IMG/VR virus record: IMGVR_UViG_3300046710_000506
Coordinates: 1-32,338 of that record
Length of the DNA: 32,338 bases
Strand: one strand, 5' to 3'
Origin: a virus
Taxonomy: Duplodnaviria > Caudoviricetes
Shown one piece after another: positions 2,404 through 13,733 of this stretch. The stretch's first letter is position 1, and every line of letters starts with the position of its first letter. The translations under genes and the position numbers were made by a program. The notes under the pieces are model-generated. The model was not told the origin of the DNA. It made no database searches and saw only the letters and a program-made list of their open reading frames with translations.

Positions 2404-3099
2404 ATGATTGATCTATTAAAAAACAAAGCAGACTGGGTAAATGAATTTCCTTGGGGAACATCTATTGACCCGTTCATCACGAATTCCATGTCGGAGATGG
2501 TTATTTGGAAACCTGACGGTACTGTTGAGTTCAATGTCAGTGATAACTTCATGTACAAAGGATGGGTAATGGATGATAACTGGCAGCGAAAGGATTGCTA
2601 TACACCATATGTCAATGGAATGATCATTTCGAAGCAACAGTTTCTTTATGGTACTTTTCATTGGAAAATGAGATTGCCTGGGTTCAGGGGATCCTGGCCA
2701 GGGGGATGGCTGATTGATGTTACCAATAACATGGGATGTCCTCCGGAGGTAGATGCGTTTGAAGGAGGCTTTAAGGATTGTCTGCTGTCCTGGTTCCATC
2801 TGACCGCAACTTATAACGATGGACCCACTTATGAAAATAACCTAAACATCTCAAAGGTTAAACGGTATTGGTTGCCCATTACATGGTTTGATATTGATGT
2901 GGATTTCGTCTGGCGAACTGATTACTTGTCAATCATCATAGATGGTAAATTGGTTATGGAAATCCATAAATCGGACTATCATAAATTTCCGAATCAGCCG
3001 ATGAATTTCATATTCGGCTCAGGTATAGGAAACTGGAATCCTCAGAAGAACAAATTTAAGCCAGTTATTTTAAAGTCATTAACCTACGAATCCTTATAA
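2404..3099 (+). CDS. Glycoside hydrolase family 16-like protein
   Basis: FLYGTF...GSWPGGWL...PPEVDAFE matches the GH16 WPAxW motif and catalytic ExDxxE; Trp-rich beta-type sequence. Confidence 0.75.
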   Translation: MIDLLKNKADWVNEFPWGTSIDPFITNSMSEMVIWKPDGTVEFNVSDNFMYKGWVMDDNWQRKDCYTPYVNGMIISKQQFLYGTFHWKMRLPGFRGSWPGGWLIDVTNNMGCPPEVDAFEGGFKDCLLSWFHLTATYNDGPTYENNLNISKVKRYWLPITWFDIDVDFVWRTDYLSIIIDGKLVMEIHKSDYHKFPNQPMNFIFGSGIGNWNPQKNKFKPVILKSLTYESL

Positions 3100-3627: not shown

Positions 3628-4149
3628 TCATTCCGGATCCTTTTTGCCTACATTATCCAGGGTTAACCTAATTGCCGCTATTTCTTTCTGTTTTCGCTGC
3701 AGAAGCCGCATTTCCACATACTGTTTCTTTTTGTGCCGCAATTCAATCAGACCATCCATCCAACCAACCAGGCTGTCGATGATCATATAAAAATATTTGA
3801 AGGCAAAGTAATTCCCGTTGGCCCATCCGTTGCGATCGGACAGGAGATTGAATAGCCTGGTGAGCTCGGCATTATATTCATCAGATTTATGTAAAGTACG
3901 AAAGTGCTGGTTTTCAAGATAAAACCACAAACGACGGTATTCGGTAAAGCATAAGACGTAAGCATCGTTAATCTGATAAAGGATCCCGGTCAGATCCTCA
4001 TTAATATGGAACACTGCCGAGTTGAGCGCCCTTTTATTTGTATATGAGAGTTTTACACCGTTTCCAAGACTTAGGGTATGCCGTTGTGCGTTGGTATAAA
4101 TGCTTGATTTATCTGGTGTTTTCATCTGATTTAGTTTGATTCTTTTCAT
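3628..4149 (-). CDS. Hypothetical helical protein
   Basis: 173-aa ORF filling the gap, convergent with 3312-3614. Confidence 0.6.
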   Translation of the reverse strand: MKRIKLNQMKTPDKSSIYTNAQRHTLSLGNGVKLSYTNKRALNSAVFHINEDLTGILYQINDAYVLCFTEYRRLWFYLENQHFRTLHKSDEYNAELTRLFNLLSDRNGWANGNYFAFKYFYMIIDSLVGWMDGLIELRHKKKQYVEMRLLQRKQKEIAAIRLTLDNVGKKDPE

Positions 4150-4433
4150 GCACAGCTAATTTACGATGTTTTTTGAAATATGTATGTAGGTGGATATCAG
4201 TTGGTTTATTTTTATGGTTTGTCCTATAATTAATAGTATGGAAAAGGTTAATCAATTACAAATAAGAGGGGTGCAAAATAATCAGCAAAGCCGTATTACT
4301 CTAAGTTCAGGATATTGTTAAGCCCCGGAAGGAAAATCAGTTACAGAAAAAAAAGACATGCAGTTTACCCGGTGCTTTATTTTATACTTAATCTACTGTC
4401 TTATAATGGTTATGGTCTTTATGTAGACAACCT

Positions 4434-4817
4434 TCATCCACGGCTTTCTTTTTTCCCCTCAAGTTCGCTTACCCTTGCCTCAAGCATTTCAATGATTTTC
4501 TTCTTATCATCTATTTGTTCCCGCAACATTCTATTCTCTTCCCTTAATTGAGTGGGGCCAGATCTATTATAGGCAATAATACCCTCATTTACCTGCTCAT
4601 CCGCTAACCAGGGATCTCCATCTTCACAAATCAACCACCTGGCATTCAGATTTGGTAATGCATTTAAGATGGAAATGAAGAATTCCAGCCCGGGATCGTT
4701 TTTATCATTGATATAATTCGAGAGGCTTGTAGTTGTCACGCCGGATATTTTCGTGAATCCGGCTTGTGATAATTCCTTATCATGTAAAATTTTCCTAATC
4801 CTTTGACCTAACGTCAT
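4434..4817 (-). CDS. CI-like XRE-family repressor (N-terminal HTH, C-terminal coiled coil)
   Basis: LGQRIRKIL...LSQAGF...TTSLSNYIND...P...LNARWLICEDG is an HTH_3 pattern; divergent from a Cro-like gene. Confidence 0.85.
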   Translation of the reverse strand: MTLGQRIRKILHDKELSQAGFTKISGVTTTSLSNYINDKNDPGLEFFISILNALPNLNARWLICEDGDPWLADEQVNEGIIAYNRSGPTQLREENRMLREQIDDKKKIIEMLEARVSELEGKKESRG

Positions 4818-4896
4818 TTGTGATAAAATTAAATTAAAAATATTCTAAATTATGGTTATTTATTCACAATAGAGTACAATATTCATAATTCTATCC

Positions 4897-4945
4897 TATA
4901 TTTGCAACGTGTAACAACAAACCATTACAAACAACAACAAAGATA
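4897..4945. promoter_or_regulatory. Face-to-face promoter pair of the genetic switch
   Basis: TATATTTG on + (4897-4904) points to cro. TATCTTTG on - (4945-4938) points to the repressor. Confidence 0.6.
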
Positions 4946-4984
4946 TAAAAATAAATACTGGTTTGTAAATAGCATAAAAGCATT

Positions 4985-5239
4985 ATGAAAATAGAAGAAA
5001 AAAAACTCAAGAAGGCATTGAAGGAGATCAATAAAGTAAGATCATATGGTTTTGCCCGGGAGGTTCAGGAAAGGATCAAGGTATTGAGGGATGGAAATAA
5101 TGAATACACAATTTCCTATATTAATATGGTGCTTTCGGGAACACGTTCGAACGCTATTATTGTAATGATGGCCATCAGGGTGGCCCGGGAGCTAAAATCG
5201 TTAAAAAAAGAAATTGAGGAATCGATATCCTCATTATAA
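4985..5239 (+). CDS. Cro-like small DNA-binding protein
   Basis: 84 aa, basic, HTH-like YTISYINMVLSGTRSN; first gene of the rightward early operon. Confidence 0.6.
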   Translation: MKIEEKKLKKALKEINKVRSYGFAREVQERIKVLRDGNNEYTISYINMVLSGTRSNAIIVMMAIRVARELKSLKKEIEESISSL

Positions 5240-5243
5240 ACAT

Positions 5244-5333
5244 CGCGCGGTAGCTCAGAGGCAGAACGCTGGGGCAATTTCGTAAGTTGCTTTCATAACC
5301 CAGAGGTCGGTGGTTCGAATCCATCCCGCGCAA
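5244..5333 (+). tRNA. tRNA-fMet(CAT)-like gene with an 18-nt insertion in the anticodon loop (possibly a pseudo-tRNA)
   Basis: Acceptor stem GCGCGG/CCGCGC with C1:A72 mismatch, anticodon stem CTGGG/CCCAG, CAT at 5294-5296, variable loop AGGTC, T arm GGTGG-TTCGAAT-CCATC. No encoded CCA. Confidence 0.75.
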
Positions 5334-5355
5334 CAGGATACCAATAAAAAAAGAT

Positions 5356-5922
5356 ATGGAAAAACCAACAGCAAAATCAATCCCATCCGGGTTAACCGAT
5401 CATTCGGTTCAATTCTTCGTCGATAACGGGGATATTGTTTTCCTGCAGGACGGTCACATGCACCCATTTCATGAAATCGACGATTTCAACCTGGATCTTA
5501 TTAGGAGCGATATGGACAATCATCCTAAGGCTATTGAGGCAATGGTGCAACTGGGAATCACTTCTCCGGTGAAACAACTCGAAAGGTACATCTATTGCAA
5601 TTTCGGAGGGTTTTCTGATAAGGCAGACATCACACCTGATGGAATCCTCAGGTATGATTACTGGGATTGCTGTGAACATGGTACCTGTAAACATGAAGGT
5701 AAGCTCTGCCATCTGCCTGAAGGCATCAACGGCATGCTTACACGCAAGGAAATTGAAATAACTCAGCTTATCGGACAGGATTTATGTGATAAGGAGGTTG
5801 CTTCCAGGCTTGGGATATCACCTCATACAGTTGCCATTCACCGAACTCATATTGAACATAAAATCGGTGCCCATTCAAAGGTGGGTATCGCACTTTTCGC
5901 AAAGGATCAAAAAATCATCTGA
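5356..5922 (+). CDS. LuxR-type HTH transcriptional regulator with Cys-rich linker
   Basis: C-terminal LTRKEIEITQLIGQDLCDKEVASRLGISPHTVAIHRTHIEHKIG is GerE/LuxR-like. Confidence 0.85.
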   Translation: MEKPTAKSIPSGLTDHSVQFFVDNGDIVFLQDGHMHPFHEIDDFNLDLIRSDMDNHPKAIEAMVQLGITSPVKQLERYIYCNFGGFSDKADITPDGILRYDYWDCCEHGTCKHEGKLCHLPEGINGMLTRKEIEITQLIGQDLCDKEVASRLGISPHTVAIHRTHIEHKIGAHSKVGIALFAKDQKII

Positions 5923-5924
5923 AC

Positions 5925-6173
5925 ATGGACCAGGAACAACTCGATTTATTCGGACAAACTCCGAATGAAGATCCACCGACGGTAATCAATGAAGATAGTG
6001 GCGATACCGAGATTACCGATTCAGATCCCCACAACCGTTCGCCTACTGAAATCAACATGGAGTCTCCTAAAGAAAAGGGGCCGGCCGCAAGACGGCTCCT
6101 TTCTGCCAAAGAACTCCGGGAAATGTCATACCAATTAAAATTCAAGTCCCCCCCACCAGAACCCGAACAATGA
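5925..6173 (+). CDS. Hypothetical protein
   Basis: Tightly packed ORF in the early operon. Confidence 0.5.
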   Translation: MDQEQLDLFGQTPNEDPPTVINEDSGDTEITDSDPHNRSPTEINMESPKEKGPAARRLLSAKELREMSYQLKFKSPPPEPEQ

Positions 6174-11665: not shown

Positions 11666-12139
11666 ATGTTAGCAACAAACGGAAAAATCATCATCGAAAT
11701 TCCTGAAGGCAAGACGGCCAACCAGGAAAGTAAAAAAGGGAAACTGATAATCAGTTTCAAAGACAAACCAAAGGGGAAGATCACCGACCGGGTAAAAGAT
11801 TTTGTCGATGCTTGCATCGAAGATGGCATTAAACCGGCCGATGTTTATAATTCTTCCGAAACCGAGGATGAAATAGCTTATAAAAAGCTGAAGCGGATCG
11901 CTAAAGTCCTCAATGAAGGATGGGAGCCAAACTGGAATGATGGCAATGAGCGCAAATGGTGGCCATGGTTTAAATGGTCGGCCGGTTCCGGGTTCGACTT
12001 TTCGTATTCGGGTTACCTCTGCGATCATTCGCATGCGACTGTCGGTTCTCGCTTTTGCTTGAAAAGCGAAGAACTTGCCAACTATTTTGGGAAACAATTC
12101 CTTCCAATTCACAACGATTTATTAATCATCAAAAAGTAA
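11666..12139 (+). CDS. DGR2 target protein A (157 aa)
   Basis: Contains VR2a ending VGSRFC; paralogous to 12144-12560. Confidence 0.9.
   Translation: MLATNGKIIIEIPEGKTANQESKKGKLIISFKDKPKGKITDRVKDFVDACIEDGIKPADVYNSSETEDEIAYKKLKRIAKVLNEGWEPNWNDGNERKWWPWFKWSAGSGFDFSYSGYLCDHSHATVGSRFCLKSEELANYFGKQFLPIHNDLLIIKK
11978..12058 (+). repeat. DGR2 variable repeat VR2a
   Basis: 81-nt ungapped match to 12603-12683, with 16 mismatches at TR adenines and 1 at a non-A position near the 3' end. Confidence 0.93.
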
Positions 12140-12143
12140 AATC

Positions 12144-12560
12144 ATGAAAAAGGAAACAAAATCTACAAGGAAGGTCAACGAACCATTCGATTTCAGATCG
12201 ATAAAGACTGTTAATGATGCTTTCAAAAAGCAGAAACTTGAACGTCCAAAATTAAAGGACCTACTGGTAATGGTACCACCAAGGTTCCGGGCTGCATGGC
12301 TTTCAGTTTATGAACTGTTCGTCATTTTCGAAGCCATTAATGACGGATGGAAGGCGGATTTCACAAACAGTAGCCAGTGGAAATATTATCCCTGGGGAAA
12401 AGTTTTGTCGGCCGGTTCCGGGTTCGACTTTTCGGATTCGGATTTCGGCTACGGTGATACGGATACGGTTGTCGGTTCTCGCCTTTGCACCAACACTTCA
12501 GAAAAAGCGAAGTATATTTTTAAGCAGTTCAATGAACAATATAAAAAGTTCTTTCTGTAA
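12144..12560 (+). CDS. DGR2 target protein B (138 aa)
   Basis: Contains VR2b ending VGSRLC; shares N(E/D)GW...K(W/Y)(W/Y)PW with target A. Confidence 0.9.
   Translation: MKKETKSTRKVNEPFDFRSIKTVNDAFKKQKLERPKLKDLLVMVPPRFRAAWLSVYELFVIFEAINDGWKADFTNSSQWKYYPWGKVLSAGSGFDFSDSDFGYGDTDTVVGSRLCTNTSEKAKYIFKQFNEQYKKFFL
12401..12489 (+). repeat. DGR2 variable repeat VR2b
   Basis: 89-nt ungapped match to 12596-12684; all 15 mismatches lie opposite TR adenines. Confidence 0.95.
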
Positions 12561-12595
12561 ATGAAAACCACCGGTGGCATGCTGCATCAGCTGAT

Positions 12596-12684
12596 AGTTT
12601 TGTCGGCCAGTTCCAGGTTCGACTTTTCGAATTCGAATTACAACTACGATAATACGAATACGAATGTCAGTTCTCACCTATGCA
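12596..12684 (+). ncRNA. DGR2 template repeat (TR2)
   Basis: AAT/AAC-rich copy of both VRs directly upstream of RT2. Confidence 0.95.
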
Positions 12685-12782
12685 AGTTTAGCAGCACGGA
12701 CCCTGCCAACAAGGCAAAAAATCACGATAGTGAAAAGAGCGTTGGTACCGATGGGAAAACGATCTTCTAACAGCAAAGGCAA

Positions 12783-13733
12783 ATGAAAAGGAAAAGCAAT
12801 TTATACGAACAGATCTGCAACATCGAAAATCTCGAGCTGGCAGATTTGGTTGCCAGGAAAGGCAAATTGAAGCAACCAGGTGTTATTGCGCATGACAAGA
12901 ACCGGGAAGAGAACATCCATATGCTTCATGAAATGCTGAAGAAAAAAACCTACAGAACTTCTGAATACACAACCTTCCCGATCTATGAGCCGAAGGAAAG
13001 GATCATCTACCGGCTTCCATACTTCCCTGACCGCATCACACACCATGCTGTGATGAACATCCTGGAGCCATTATTCGTCTCCACTTTTACGGCCAACACC
13101 TACAGTTGTATAAAAGGTCGTGGGATCCATGCTGCAGCCAATGCCGTGAAATGCGCACTCAGGGATGTGGATGGAACCCAGTTTTGTTTAAAGATGGATG
13201 TGCGGAAGTTCTACCCATCAGTTGATCATGACATTTTAAAGCAGCTTCTGCGCCGTAAGATAAAAGACCAGGATCTCTTGTGGCTTCTTGATGAGATCAT
13301 CGACAGCACCGATGGCCTGCCGATAGGGAATTACCTGAGCCAGTATTTTGCAAACTTCTTTTTGACCTATTTCGATCATTGGATCAAGGAAGAGAAGAAA
13401 GTGAAGTATTACTTCCGGTATGCCGACGACCTGGTTATCCTGGCCGGGGATAAACCATACCTGCACCAGATCCTATCCGATATCACTAAATACCTGCAGG
13501 AAAGGCTCAAGTTGACGGTGAAGGATAACTACCAGGTGTTTCCGGTGGATGACCGAGGGATCTACTTTGTGGGTTACGTTTTCTTCCACACACATACGCG
13601 CCTGCGCAAAACCATCAAGCAGAACTTTGCCCGGATGCTGGCCCGGAGACCAAATCTTAAATCAATAGCATCCTACCAGGGATGGATCAAGCATTGTGAT
13701 GGCAGACACTTACTCAAAAAATTGTGCGCATGA
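12783..13733 (+). CDS. DGR reverse transcriptase RT2
   Basis: 316 aa with PDRITHHA, KMDVRKFYPS, GLPIGNYLSQ and catalytic YADD. Confidence 0.95.
   Translation: MKRKSNLYEQICNIENLELADLVARKGKLKQPGVIAHDKNREENIHMLHEMLKKKTYRTSEYTTFPIYEPKERIIYRLPYFPDRITHHAVMNILEPLFVSTFTANTYSCIKGRGIHAAANAVKCALRDVDGTQFCLKMDVRKFYPSVDHDILKQLLRRKIKDQDLLWLLDEIIDSTDGLPIGNYLSQYFANFFLTYFDHWIKEEKKVKYYFRYADDLVILAGDKPYLHQILSDITKYLQERLKLTVKDNYQVFPVDDRGIYFVGYVFFHTHTRLRKTIKQNFARMLARRPNLKSIASYQGWIKHCDGRHLLKKLCA

Follow-up and report, generated by a model that had tools for sequence, protein, structure and literature searches.

A phage tRNA-Met-like gene carrying a second, threonine-type anticodon arm

The phage and its early operon

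The DNA analyzed here, called the window throughout, is the whole 32,338-base virus record IMGVR_UViG_3300046710_000506. Judged from its gene content, it represents a temperate phage, probably with a host in the phylum Bacteroidota. In searches with PHROGs and Pfam, a repressor, a DnaG primase, and head genes were identified, along with two reverse transcriptases, the first of which belongs with an Avd gene to a DGR. The features of the early region, which contains the tRNA-like gene studied here, are listed in Table 1.

Table 1. Features of the early region and parts of the tRNA-like gene in the window
Feature	Position	Strand	Evidence and remarks
Repressor-type HTH gene	4434..4817	-	PHROGs repressor/regulator families, Pfam HTH_3; divergent from the tRNA-bearing operon
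Promoter-like -7 element, Bacteroidota-type	4897..4904	+	Sole + strand match within 4100-5400
Cro-position ORF, 84 aa	4985..5239	+	Stops 4 nt before the tRNA-like gene; without family match
tRNA-like gene, tRNA-Met body with nested Thr anticodon arm	5244..5333	+	Rfam RF00005, ARAGORN, position table; CCA not encoded
Acceptor 5' strand	5244..5250	+	Pairs with 5326-5332: C1xA72, G2-C71, C3-G70, G4-C69; A73 is 5333
D arm, elongator type	5253..5267	+	C11, U12-A23, C11xA24; canonical A14, G15, G18, G19, A21
Met anticodon stem	5269..5303	+	5/5 pairs (5269-5273 with 5299-5303), enclosing a 25-nt segment; pair probabilities 0.86-0.92
Nested second anticodon arm	5274..5290	+	5-bp stem, loop UU-CGU-AA, Thr anticodon 5281-5283; pair probabilities 0.98-0.99
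Spacer U and displaced Met loop UU-CAU-AA	5291..5298	+	CAT 5294-5296; predicted 8-nt bulge
Variable region and T arm	5304..5325	+	T arm agrees with L082's plain tRNA-Met at 17/17 positions
LuxR/GerE-type regulator	5356..5922	+	Pfam GerE; start 22 nt past the tRNA end

The repressor shows 43% identity to the gene in the matching position of the related viral record L082. The promoter-like element was assigned by the consensus of Bacteroidota -7 elements, and the repressor/cro gap of L082 holds such matches at 2062 (+) and 2102 (-). The element is likely the start of the rightward early transcript, and its occurrence together with a counterpart in L082 suggests transcription early in lytic growth. 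The Cro-position ORF has weak similarity to the ORF in the same place of the viral record L120, and stretches of DNA about 90% identical to it were found in contigs of the sequencing runs X1 and X2. In X1 they point to a second strain, with 20 differences in 194 nt (about 90% identity) across window positions 4992-5185. The LuxR-type protein is 66% identical to that of L082 and has distant relatives in the Flavobacterium phages 1H, 6H, and laban6-1 (Duneviridae) as well as in Bacteroidota genomes. Minus-strand ORFs overlap the tRNA-like gene.

Several cassettes outside the early region were also observed. The first DGR has its variable repeat at 129-248 and its template at 710-829, with 23 differing sites, 20 of which are A in the template. 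Avd and the reverse transcriptase lie downstream (318-692 and 974-1981), accompanied by a sub-threshold RT-14 RNA match at 823-963, and a GH16-like gene (2404-3099) follows. A second DGR-like cassette (11666-13733) has a template near 12595-12690, a reverse transcriptase at 12783-13733, and two variable repeats whose differences are A-biased and which lie at the ends of two tandem ORFs (11666-12139 and 12144-12560). It shows a sub-threshold RT-17 match at 12699-12786 and no Avd match nearby, and the repeat layout in the record L004 is identical. Between 18690 and 22297, a Stealth-like gene and two glycosyltransferase-family genes lie amid the head genes.

A second anticodon arm inside a tRNA-Met body

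The preliminary description of this DNA had reported an initiator-tRNA-like gene with an anticodon loop of 25 nt in place of 7. The same long loop was recovered by the RF00005 match, which spans the whole gene (41.9 bits, E 8.5e-6). In initiator tRNA-fMet, the anticodon stem is closed by three G-C pairs. In the position table all of the initiator hallmarks named earlier were present, namely C1xA72, the three G-C pairs (5271-5273/5299-5301), and the CAT triplet; the relative in run X3, described below, probably has two such pairs only. C1xA72, G2-C71, C3-G70, G4-C69, and A73 are determinants of the formyltransferase (PMC9976931), and the window carries them all. The single D-stem mismatch reported before is C11xA24. 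What had been overlooked is that the R11:Y24 pair, a feature of initiator tRNAs (PMC9976931), is thereby absent. Y24 and a plain 7-nt loop occur together in 27 of 27 distinct tRNA-Met genes used for comparison (from 38 matches, mostly in other phage groups). Positions 8-15 of the D arm agree with host and phage tRNA-Thr genes. Altogether 19 of the 21 stem pairs are intact, the exceptions being the hallmark C1xA72 and the break at C11xA24, and the core tertiary bases are all kept.

The gene conforms neither to a plain initiator tRNA nor to a tRNA-Thr. CAU is not centered in a 7-nt loop and lies instead in the 25-nt segment. The acceptor stem has C1xA72 and G2-C71, compared with G1-C72 and C2-G71 in four host tRNA-Thr genes; such acceptor pairs are identity elements of tRNA-Thr that vary among species. 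None of the four host genes has a CGU anticodon, and all begin with G1,C2. Two pattern searches for host tRNA-Thr gave mostly chance matches.

The preliminary description had taken the insert for a hairpin. It is a canonical anticodon stem-loop with 5 bp, 7 nt, and a Thr anticodon, and it begins precisely after G31. In the window and in X3 the nested arm agrees with the tRNA-Thr loop pattern Y32 U33 N G35 U36 A37 A38. The fold of 5274-5291 has an energy of -4.6 kcal/mol (z -3.65), which was reached by 0 of 200 shuffles, and only 324 of 200000 shuffles formed an anticodon arm by a loose definition and 16 of 200000 by a strict one. ARAGORN, which had been proposed as a check, called a tRNA-Thr(cgt) when introns were disallowed and a tRNA-Met with an 18-nt intron when they were allowed, so gene callers will label the gene Thr or Met-with-intron according to their settings. 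In a search of IMG/VR with an insert pattern that fixed the anticodon, 58 matches were obtained; in 4 of them (3 distinct) the identical 17-nt arm was the gene's own anticodon arm, and these 4 are all tRNA-Thr genes. A search of the stem blind to the anticodon gave 16 matches with 6 called tRNAs, of which 5 were distinct: two Thr, two Arg, and one Gly. Because two of these five are Thr, the stem is a natural phage anticodon stem but is not Thr-specific. The tRNA gene has gained an entire second anticodon arm.

Two folds were considered. In the favored prediction, fold A, the Thr arm is stacked on the Met stem to give 10 bp, CAU lies in an 8-nt bulge, and the stems have probabilities of 0.86-0.99. 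In fold B the Thr arm lies beneath a re-paired D stem (D', 5254-5258 with 5269-5273) and CAU is moved to the variable region. Pairs of fold B had probabilities of 0.06-0.07, and a fold-B structure was found 1 kcal/mol above the minimum. The canonical D stem was unpopulated in the folding model, as it often is in models without tertiary contacts. With five extra pairs, the nested arm of fold A exceeds the canonical arm length directly below the D stem. According to this model, the Met loop would be disrupted, and the Thr loop would stand 5 bp further out than decoding permits.

If 5274-5291 is excised precisely, a stem of 5 bp with a CAU loop of 7 nt results. This raises the reading of a shielded or latent initiator, in which the insert would keep nucleases that cut fMet tRNA away from the CAU loop, or be excised as a mini-intron to give tRNA-fMet. 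The formylation determinants and the three G-C pairs are retained, CAU is preserved in X3, and MetRS depends mainly on the anticodon (PMC9976931). However, among the scanned window proteins no ligase or nuclease family was found, R11:Y24 is lost, and what is conserved of the insert are anticodon-arm features and not splice signals. A 17-nt hairpin at position 31/32 would also likely clash in the P site. Group I introns have a core of some hundred nucleotides, a 5' exon ending in U, and an intron ending in G. Here the insert measures 18 nt, the exon ends in G, the insert ends in U, and no Rfam group I match was found in the window; the earlier judgment that the insert is too short for a group I intron therefore stands. 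In BHB introns, the splice sites lie in two 3-nt bulges that flank a central helix of 4 bp. At the restoring excision 0 of 4 central-helix pairs were present, and no start from 5270 to 5295 gave 4 of 4. Without a BHB motif or group I ends, the unusual mini-intron once suggested finds no support, and we regard the latent initiator as improbable.

Second copies, plain relatives, and the origin of the insert

The insert was recovered from contigs of two runs. X1, which may be the source sample, yielded a Logan contig of 6851 nt that spans 5156-6000; it shows 0 differences and 0 gaps there, and no joint bypasses the insert. In X3, which belongs to a different study, a related 151-nt Logan contig from soil covers 5272-5422 with 8 differences and no gap; it is a single partial contig at depth 2.6, without the 5' half, and its insert was revealed as a loose end in alignment to the insert-free L082. 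The two contigs rule out an assembly artifact and show that the insert is not peculiar to this assembly, the eventuality that the preliminary description had named as fatal to its reading. From X2 only cro-region pieces were obtained, with one loose end that begins like the L082 tRNA.

Within the insert, X3 differs at 5279, 5281, and 5286, which changes U32 to C32, CGU to UGU, and a U.G pair to U-A. The resulting loop, CU-UGU-AA, is still that of a tRNA-Thr and is identical to the loop of the host tRNA-Thr(UGU) L299; the five outer pairs survive, and CAU is retained. All three changes are compatible with a Thr arm. The insert indeed folds on itself as described, but since the change at 5279 breaks an inner pair of the 7-bp hairpin given in the preliminary description, the fold that has been kept is the 5-bp arm with its 7-nt loop. 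Random trios of changes retained the Thr arm in 78 of 680 cases when only transitions were allowed, as observed, and in 258 of 18360 when any change was allowed. As drift by transitions alone would keep the arm at p 0.11, its conservation in X3 is suggestive and not proof. Across the 151 nt, 4 of the 8 differences seen lie within the 32-nt arm (p 0.063), or 5 of 8 if one deduced change is included (p 0.011), and none of the differences listed falls within 5304-5392. The mismatch count (13 expected, 11 reported, 5303 known) implies that the 3' Met strand of X3 equals that of L082; position 5301 of X3 is deduced in this way, and its 5' strand lies beyond the contig. The 3' Met strand of the window has two changes from that of L082 and yet is fully paired, which points to compensation or exchange after insertion. 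Taken from one partial relative, the evidence for selection on the nested arm is modest.

No further copies of the insert were found in IMG/VR, GTDB samples, phages, or plasmids. In IMG/VR, the long-loop pattern had one match, an unrelated tRNA-Met with a 21-nt insert; the clade-type 3'-half pattern had 38, none with an insert; the insert pattern had its 58 matches, none inside a Met gene; and the generic double-arm pattern had one, a tRNA-Met with a decayed 5' half. The unrelated gene with the 21-nt anticodon-loop insert (L001:2983-3076, minus strand, on an 85-kb viral contig) has this insert flanked by a 4-nt direct repeat. In BLAST searches of phages and plasmids, the matches listed (40 of 171 and 8 of 325, respectively) covered the 3' half only. 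In 401 Bacteroidota genomes the arm pattern had 4 matches, compared with 7 for a control, and 0 lay in a tRNA; in 401 genomes of the order of G005 the clade 3' end had 0 matches. Scans for LuxR loci gave none with a single protein, and with an alignment 38 loci in viruses, 8 in metagenomes, and 3 in genomes. Among the open-access and bioRxiv papers listed, no title or abstract opening described a naturally occurring tRNA in which one anticodon arm is nested in another, although a subscription journal or a supplementary tRNA table could contain such a report. The architecture is real and odd, and only two copies of it are known, one of them partial.

Related temperate phages of Bacteroidota carry plain genes. 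L082, the closest relative of full length and a 99% complete record with one tRNA, has its tRNA-Met where the window has the tRNA-like gene, after the Cro-position ORF and before LuxR, whereas in L002, L004, L120, and L121 the tRNA-Met lies further along the operon, shortly before the primase. The slot of the tRNA-Met in the early operon thus varies. L082 and the window agree fully in the T arm and in the 3' strand of the acceptor, and neither gene encodes CCA. The tRNA-Met(CAU) genes of L082, L004, L120, and L121, which belong to the same operon as the window gene, have a 7-nt CAU loop and R11:Y24, where the window has the 18-nt Thr-arm insert and an elongator-type D arm. Relative to L082, the pairs 12-23, 27-43, and 29-41 are changed on both sides in the window, and 11-24 is broken. 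Other irregular genes were noticed as well. The tRNA-Met of L002 (4638-4712) has a 9-nt anticodon loop, or a stem closed by A.C, with G32 and G38. L235:1501-1596 is a 95-nt irregular Phe-like gene, L227 holds a tRNA-Met that has lost its 5' half, and L264 has a Cys-like arm without a called tRNA. In L131-L168, the 27 distinct viral tRNA-Met genes have 18 distinct anticodon stems and only two forms of the loop.

These comparisons bear on the possibility that the locus is a relic, i.e. the scar of a capture or self-duplication in a dispensable tRNA-Met gene, whose RNA would be inert or a mere processing site of the early transcript and whose Thr-like arm would be incidental. We consider it a real possibility, if not a probable one, and nearly as likely as the bait function discussed below. 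Calls of tRNAs were made in only 3 of 49 LuxR loci and 2 of 80 primase loci (many of them incomplete), which suggests that phages of this group can do without the tRNA gene. In the tRNA-Met of L082, positions 23-29 read C-U-CGU-U-A, one change short of the Thr(CGU) loop. Window positions 5272-5293 resemble Met positions 18-33, a likeness at which 18 of 1000 shuffles reached the best of 22 scores, and the changes in X3 fit drift under the transitions-only null. However, without the flanking anchors the likeness to a duplication is not significant (255 of 3000 shuffles for the best of 6, and 452 of 3000 against L082), although the interior-only score is still above the raw scores of 14 control arms that were not chosen for their loop. 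The duplicate also has no stem, so that five pairs in the exact 7-nt register must have arisen later. A loop partly obtainable by self-duplication weakens the argument from chance for the loop and leaves the stem unexplained. The window's pairing at two sites where X3 probably follows L082 is a further point against a relic. The decaying gene of the preliminary description remains a close rival in that one D pair (11-24) is broken, while the acceptor and T arms are undamaged. From the sequences, the arm may either have been captured from another phage tRNA gene, or Met positions 19-33 may have been duplicated and reshaped. A DGR or another source within the window was rejected, as other matches in the window carry at least 5 mismatches in 18. 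As a relic, the locus would be no more than a small curiosity in the turnover of phage tRNAs.

Possible roles of the RNA

tRNA-Thr is a recurrent target of proteins that attack tRNAs. tRNA-Thr(UGU) is a main target of P2-OLD and AriB (PMC12445682; bioRxiv 2025.02.04.636281), AriB cuts Thr(CGU) weakly (bioRxiv 2025.02.04.636281), and a T6SS toxin modifies tRNA-Thr(GGU). Competitive inhibition by viral tRNAs has been raised as a possibility (bioRxiv 2025.02.04.636281), and a hairpin in place of the anticodon loop was reported to give a stable, processed RNA in E. coli (PMC3753655). Because tRNA-Thr is so often targeted and hairpin-bearing tRNA cores are stable, we chose a bait on a tRNA scaffold as the best, still tentative, reading: the gene may encode a non-translating tRNA-shaped carrier whose Thr anticodon loop serves as bait for host proteins that recognize tRNA-Thr, such as defense tRNases and toxins. 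The more specific version, an initiator tRNA turned into a ribosome-inert scaffold with the Thr arm as a decoy against tRNA-Thr-targeting immunity, is conceivable and somewhat more doubtful. The RNA would be transcribed with the cro-LuxR operon at an early stage of lytic growth, cut out and stabilized in the manner of an engineered tRNA scaffold, kept off the ribosome by its overlong arm and C1xA72, and would then compete for a tRNA-Thr-reading protein. A tRNA mimic or decoy had already been suggested, with fMet-cutting VapC as the target. The mimic survives as the best reading, but as the exposed loop is that of Thr, proteins that read tRNA-Thr are the likelier target. If correct, the phage would counter host defense by way of an RNA decoy, a route separate from the replacement of a cut tRNA.

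Several results weigh against the bait. P2-OLD cuts a paired CNG in a stem with A37 (PMC12445682), and the sequence of the AriB cut site is U36AAUC (bioRxiv 2025.02.04.636281). The nested arm has neither the paired CNG nor U36AAUC, whereas host Thr(UGU) arms have both, and it would therefore be a poor bait for these two enzymes. The outer Met stem of the window does contain a paired CUG/CAG, which X3 probably lacks. As reported in PMC12445682, a resistant phage tRNA-Thr gave the host tRNA no protection from OLD by competition. No Bacteroidota nuclease for tRNA-Thr was identified, and we count this against the bait. A search for a neighboring toxin or nuclease yielded one weak and implausible PADLOC match among 22 proteins, and ORF 3628-4149 had no usable Atlas match.

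The missing OLD and AriB motifs fit a resistant tRNA-Thr better than a bait. The gene could accordingly be a working or half-evolved tRNA-Thr, whose nuclease-resistant Thr arm would replace the cleaved host tRNA-Thr by adopting fold B. Rescuing phage tRNA-Thr genes likewise have an arm without these motifs (PMC12445682; bioRxiv 2025.02.04.636281). The synonymous change between CGU and UGU is as expected under selection for decoding, the D arm is of the elongator type, and a fold-B structure lies close to the minimum. Acceptor stem and geometry oppose decoding, however. The stem is of the fMet type, in contrast to G1,C2 in 4 of 4 host tRNA-Thr genes, and a C1xA72 mismatch hinders use by the elongation factor EF-Tu. 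Fold B has low pair probabilities and loses the G18G19 spacing and the pairs 10:25 and 26:44, and the arm of fold A is 5 bp too long for a tRNA-Thr. We therefore consider a working tRNA-Thr unlikely, though slightly less so than the latent initiator. The phage tRNAs tested so far are reported to defeat tRNA-cutting immunity by replacing the cut tRNA (PMC12445682; bioRxiv 2025.02.04.636281). As the 90-nt RNA is probably unable to decode and yet bears a Thr loop, it could tell bait from replacement.

The closest known systems each share a part of this architecture. Nuclease-evading phage tRNAs include a phage tRNA-Thr that rescues from P2-OLD (PMC12445682) and T5 tRNAs that act against PARIS/AriB (bioRxiv 2025.02.04.636281); mutation of the anticodon loop has been hypothesized as a means of nuclease evasion by phages (PMC10264068). 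With these systems the window shares a phage gene, a Thr anticodon, the absence of OLD and AriB cut motifs, and a concentration of variation in the anticodon arm. As described in those sources, however, they are normal cloverleaves that rescue by decoding, whereas the window gene combines a Met body with two loops and an arm of 10 bp. The engineered tRNA scaffold (PMC3753655) likewise displays a hairpin from the anticodon stem with the acceptor/D/T core intact. The window gene differs from it in being natural, in having an anticodon arm itself as the passenger, and in retaining the old loop as a bulge.

A third likeness is that to the E. coli thrS operator, which contains a mimic of the tRNA-Thr anticodon arm together with another stem that resembles an anticodon arm, and whose control can be made to respond to MetRS (PMC9976931). 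In the window, too, a mimic of this arm and a further anticodon-like element precede a gene. In an operator-like reading, the two anticodon-like loops 22 nt before LuxR would bind ThrRS or MetRS and couple LuxR translation to the state of the host tRNAs. The thrS operator, as presented in PMC9976931, has no acceptor arm and precedes thrS, whereas in the window a LuxR-type gene follows a complete tRNA gene, whose second loop is that of Met. With its full acceptor and T arms the element should be cut from the mRNA, L082 has a plain tRNA at this site, and four relatives have their tRNA before the primase. We consider such an operator highly unlikely.

The two loops would also permit a recoding adaptor, in which one loop serves the synthetase and the other the ribosome, placing Met at ACG or ACA (or starting there) or Thr at AUG. 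E. coli MetRS is reported to mischarge tRNA-Thr(CGU) (PMC9976931). Comparison with homologues makes this the least credible of the readings. Start ATGs of homologues align to ATG in the window, and no ORF requires an ACG start. At ACG codons the majority residue of the homologues was Thr in 33 of 53 cases and Met in 0; at ACA it was Thr in 54 of 101, and at internal ATG it was Met in 107 of 179 and Thr in 6. Codon reassignment and ACG starts are contradicted by this comparison, and genome-wide recoding is largely refuted.
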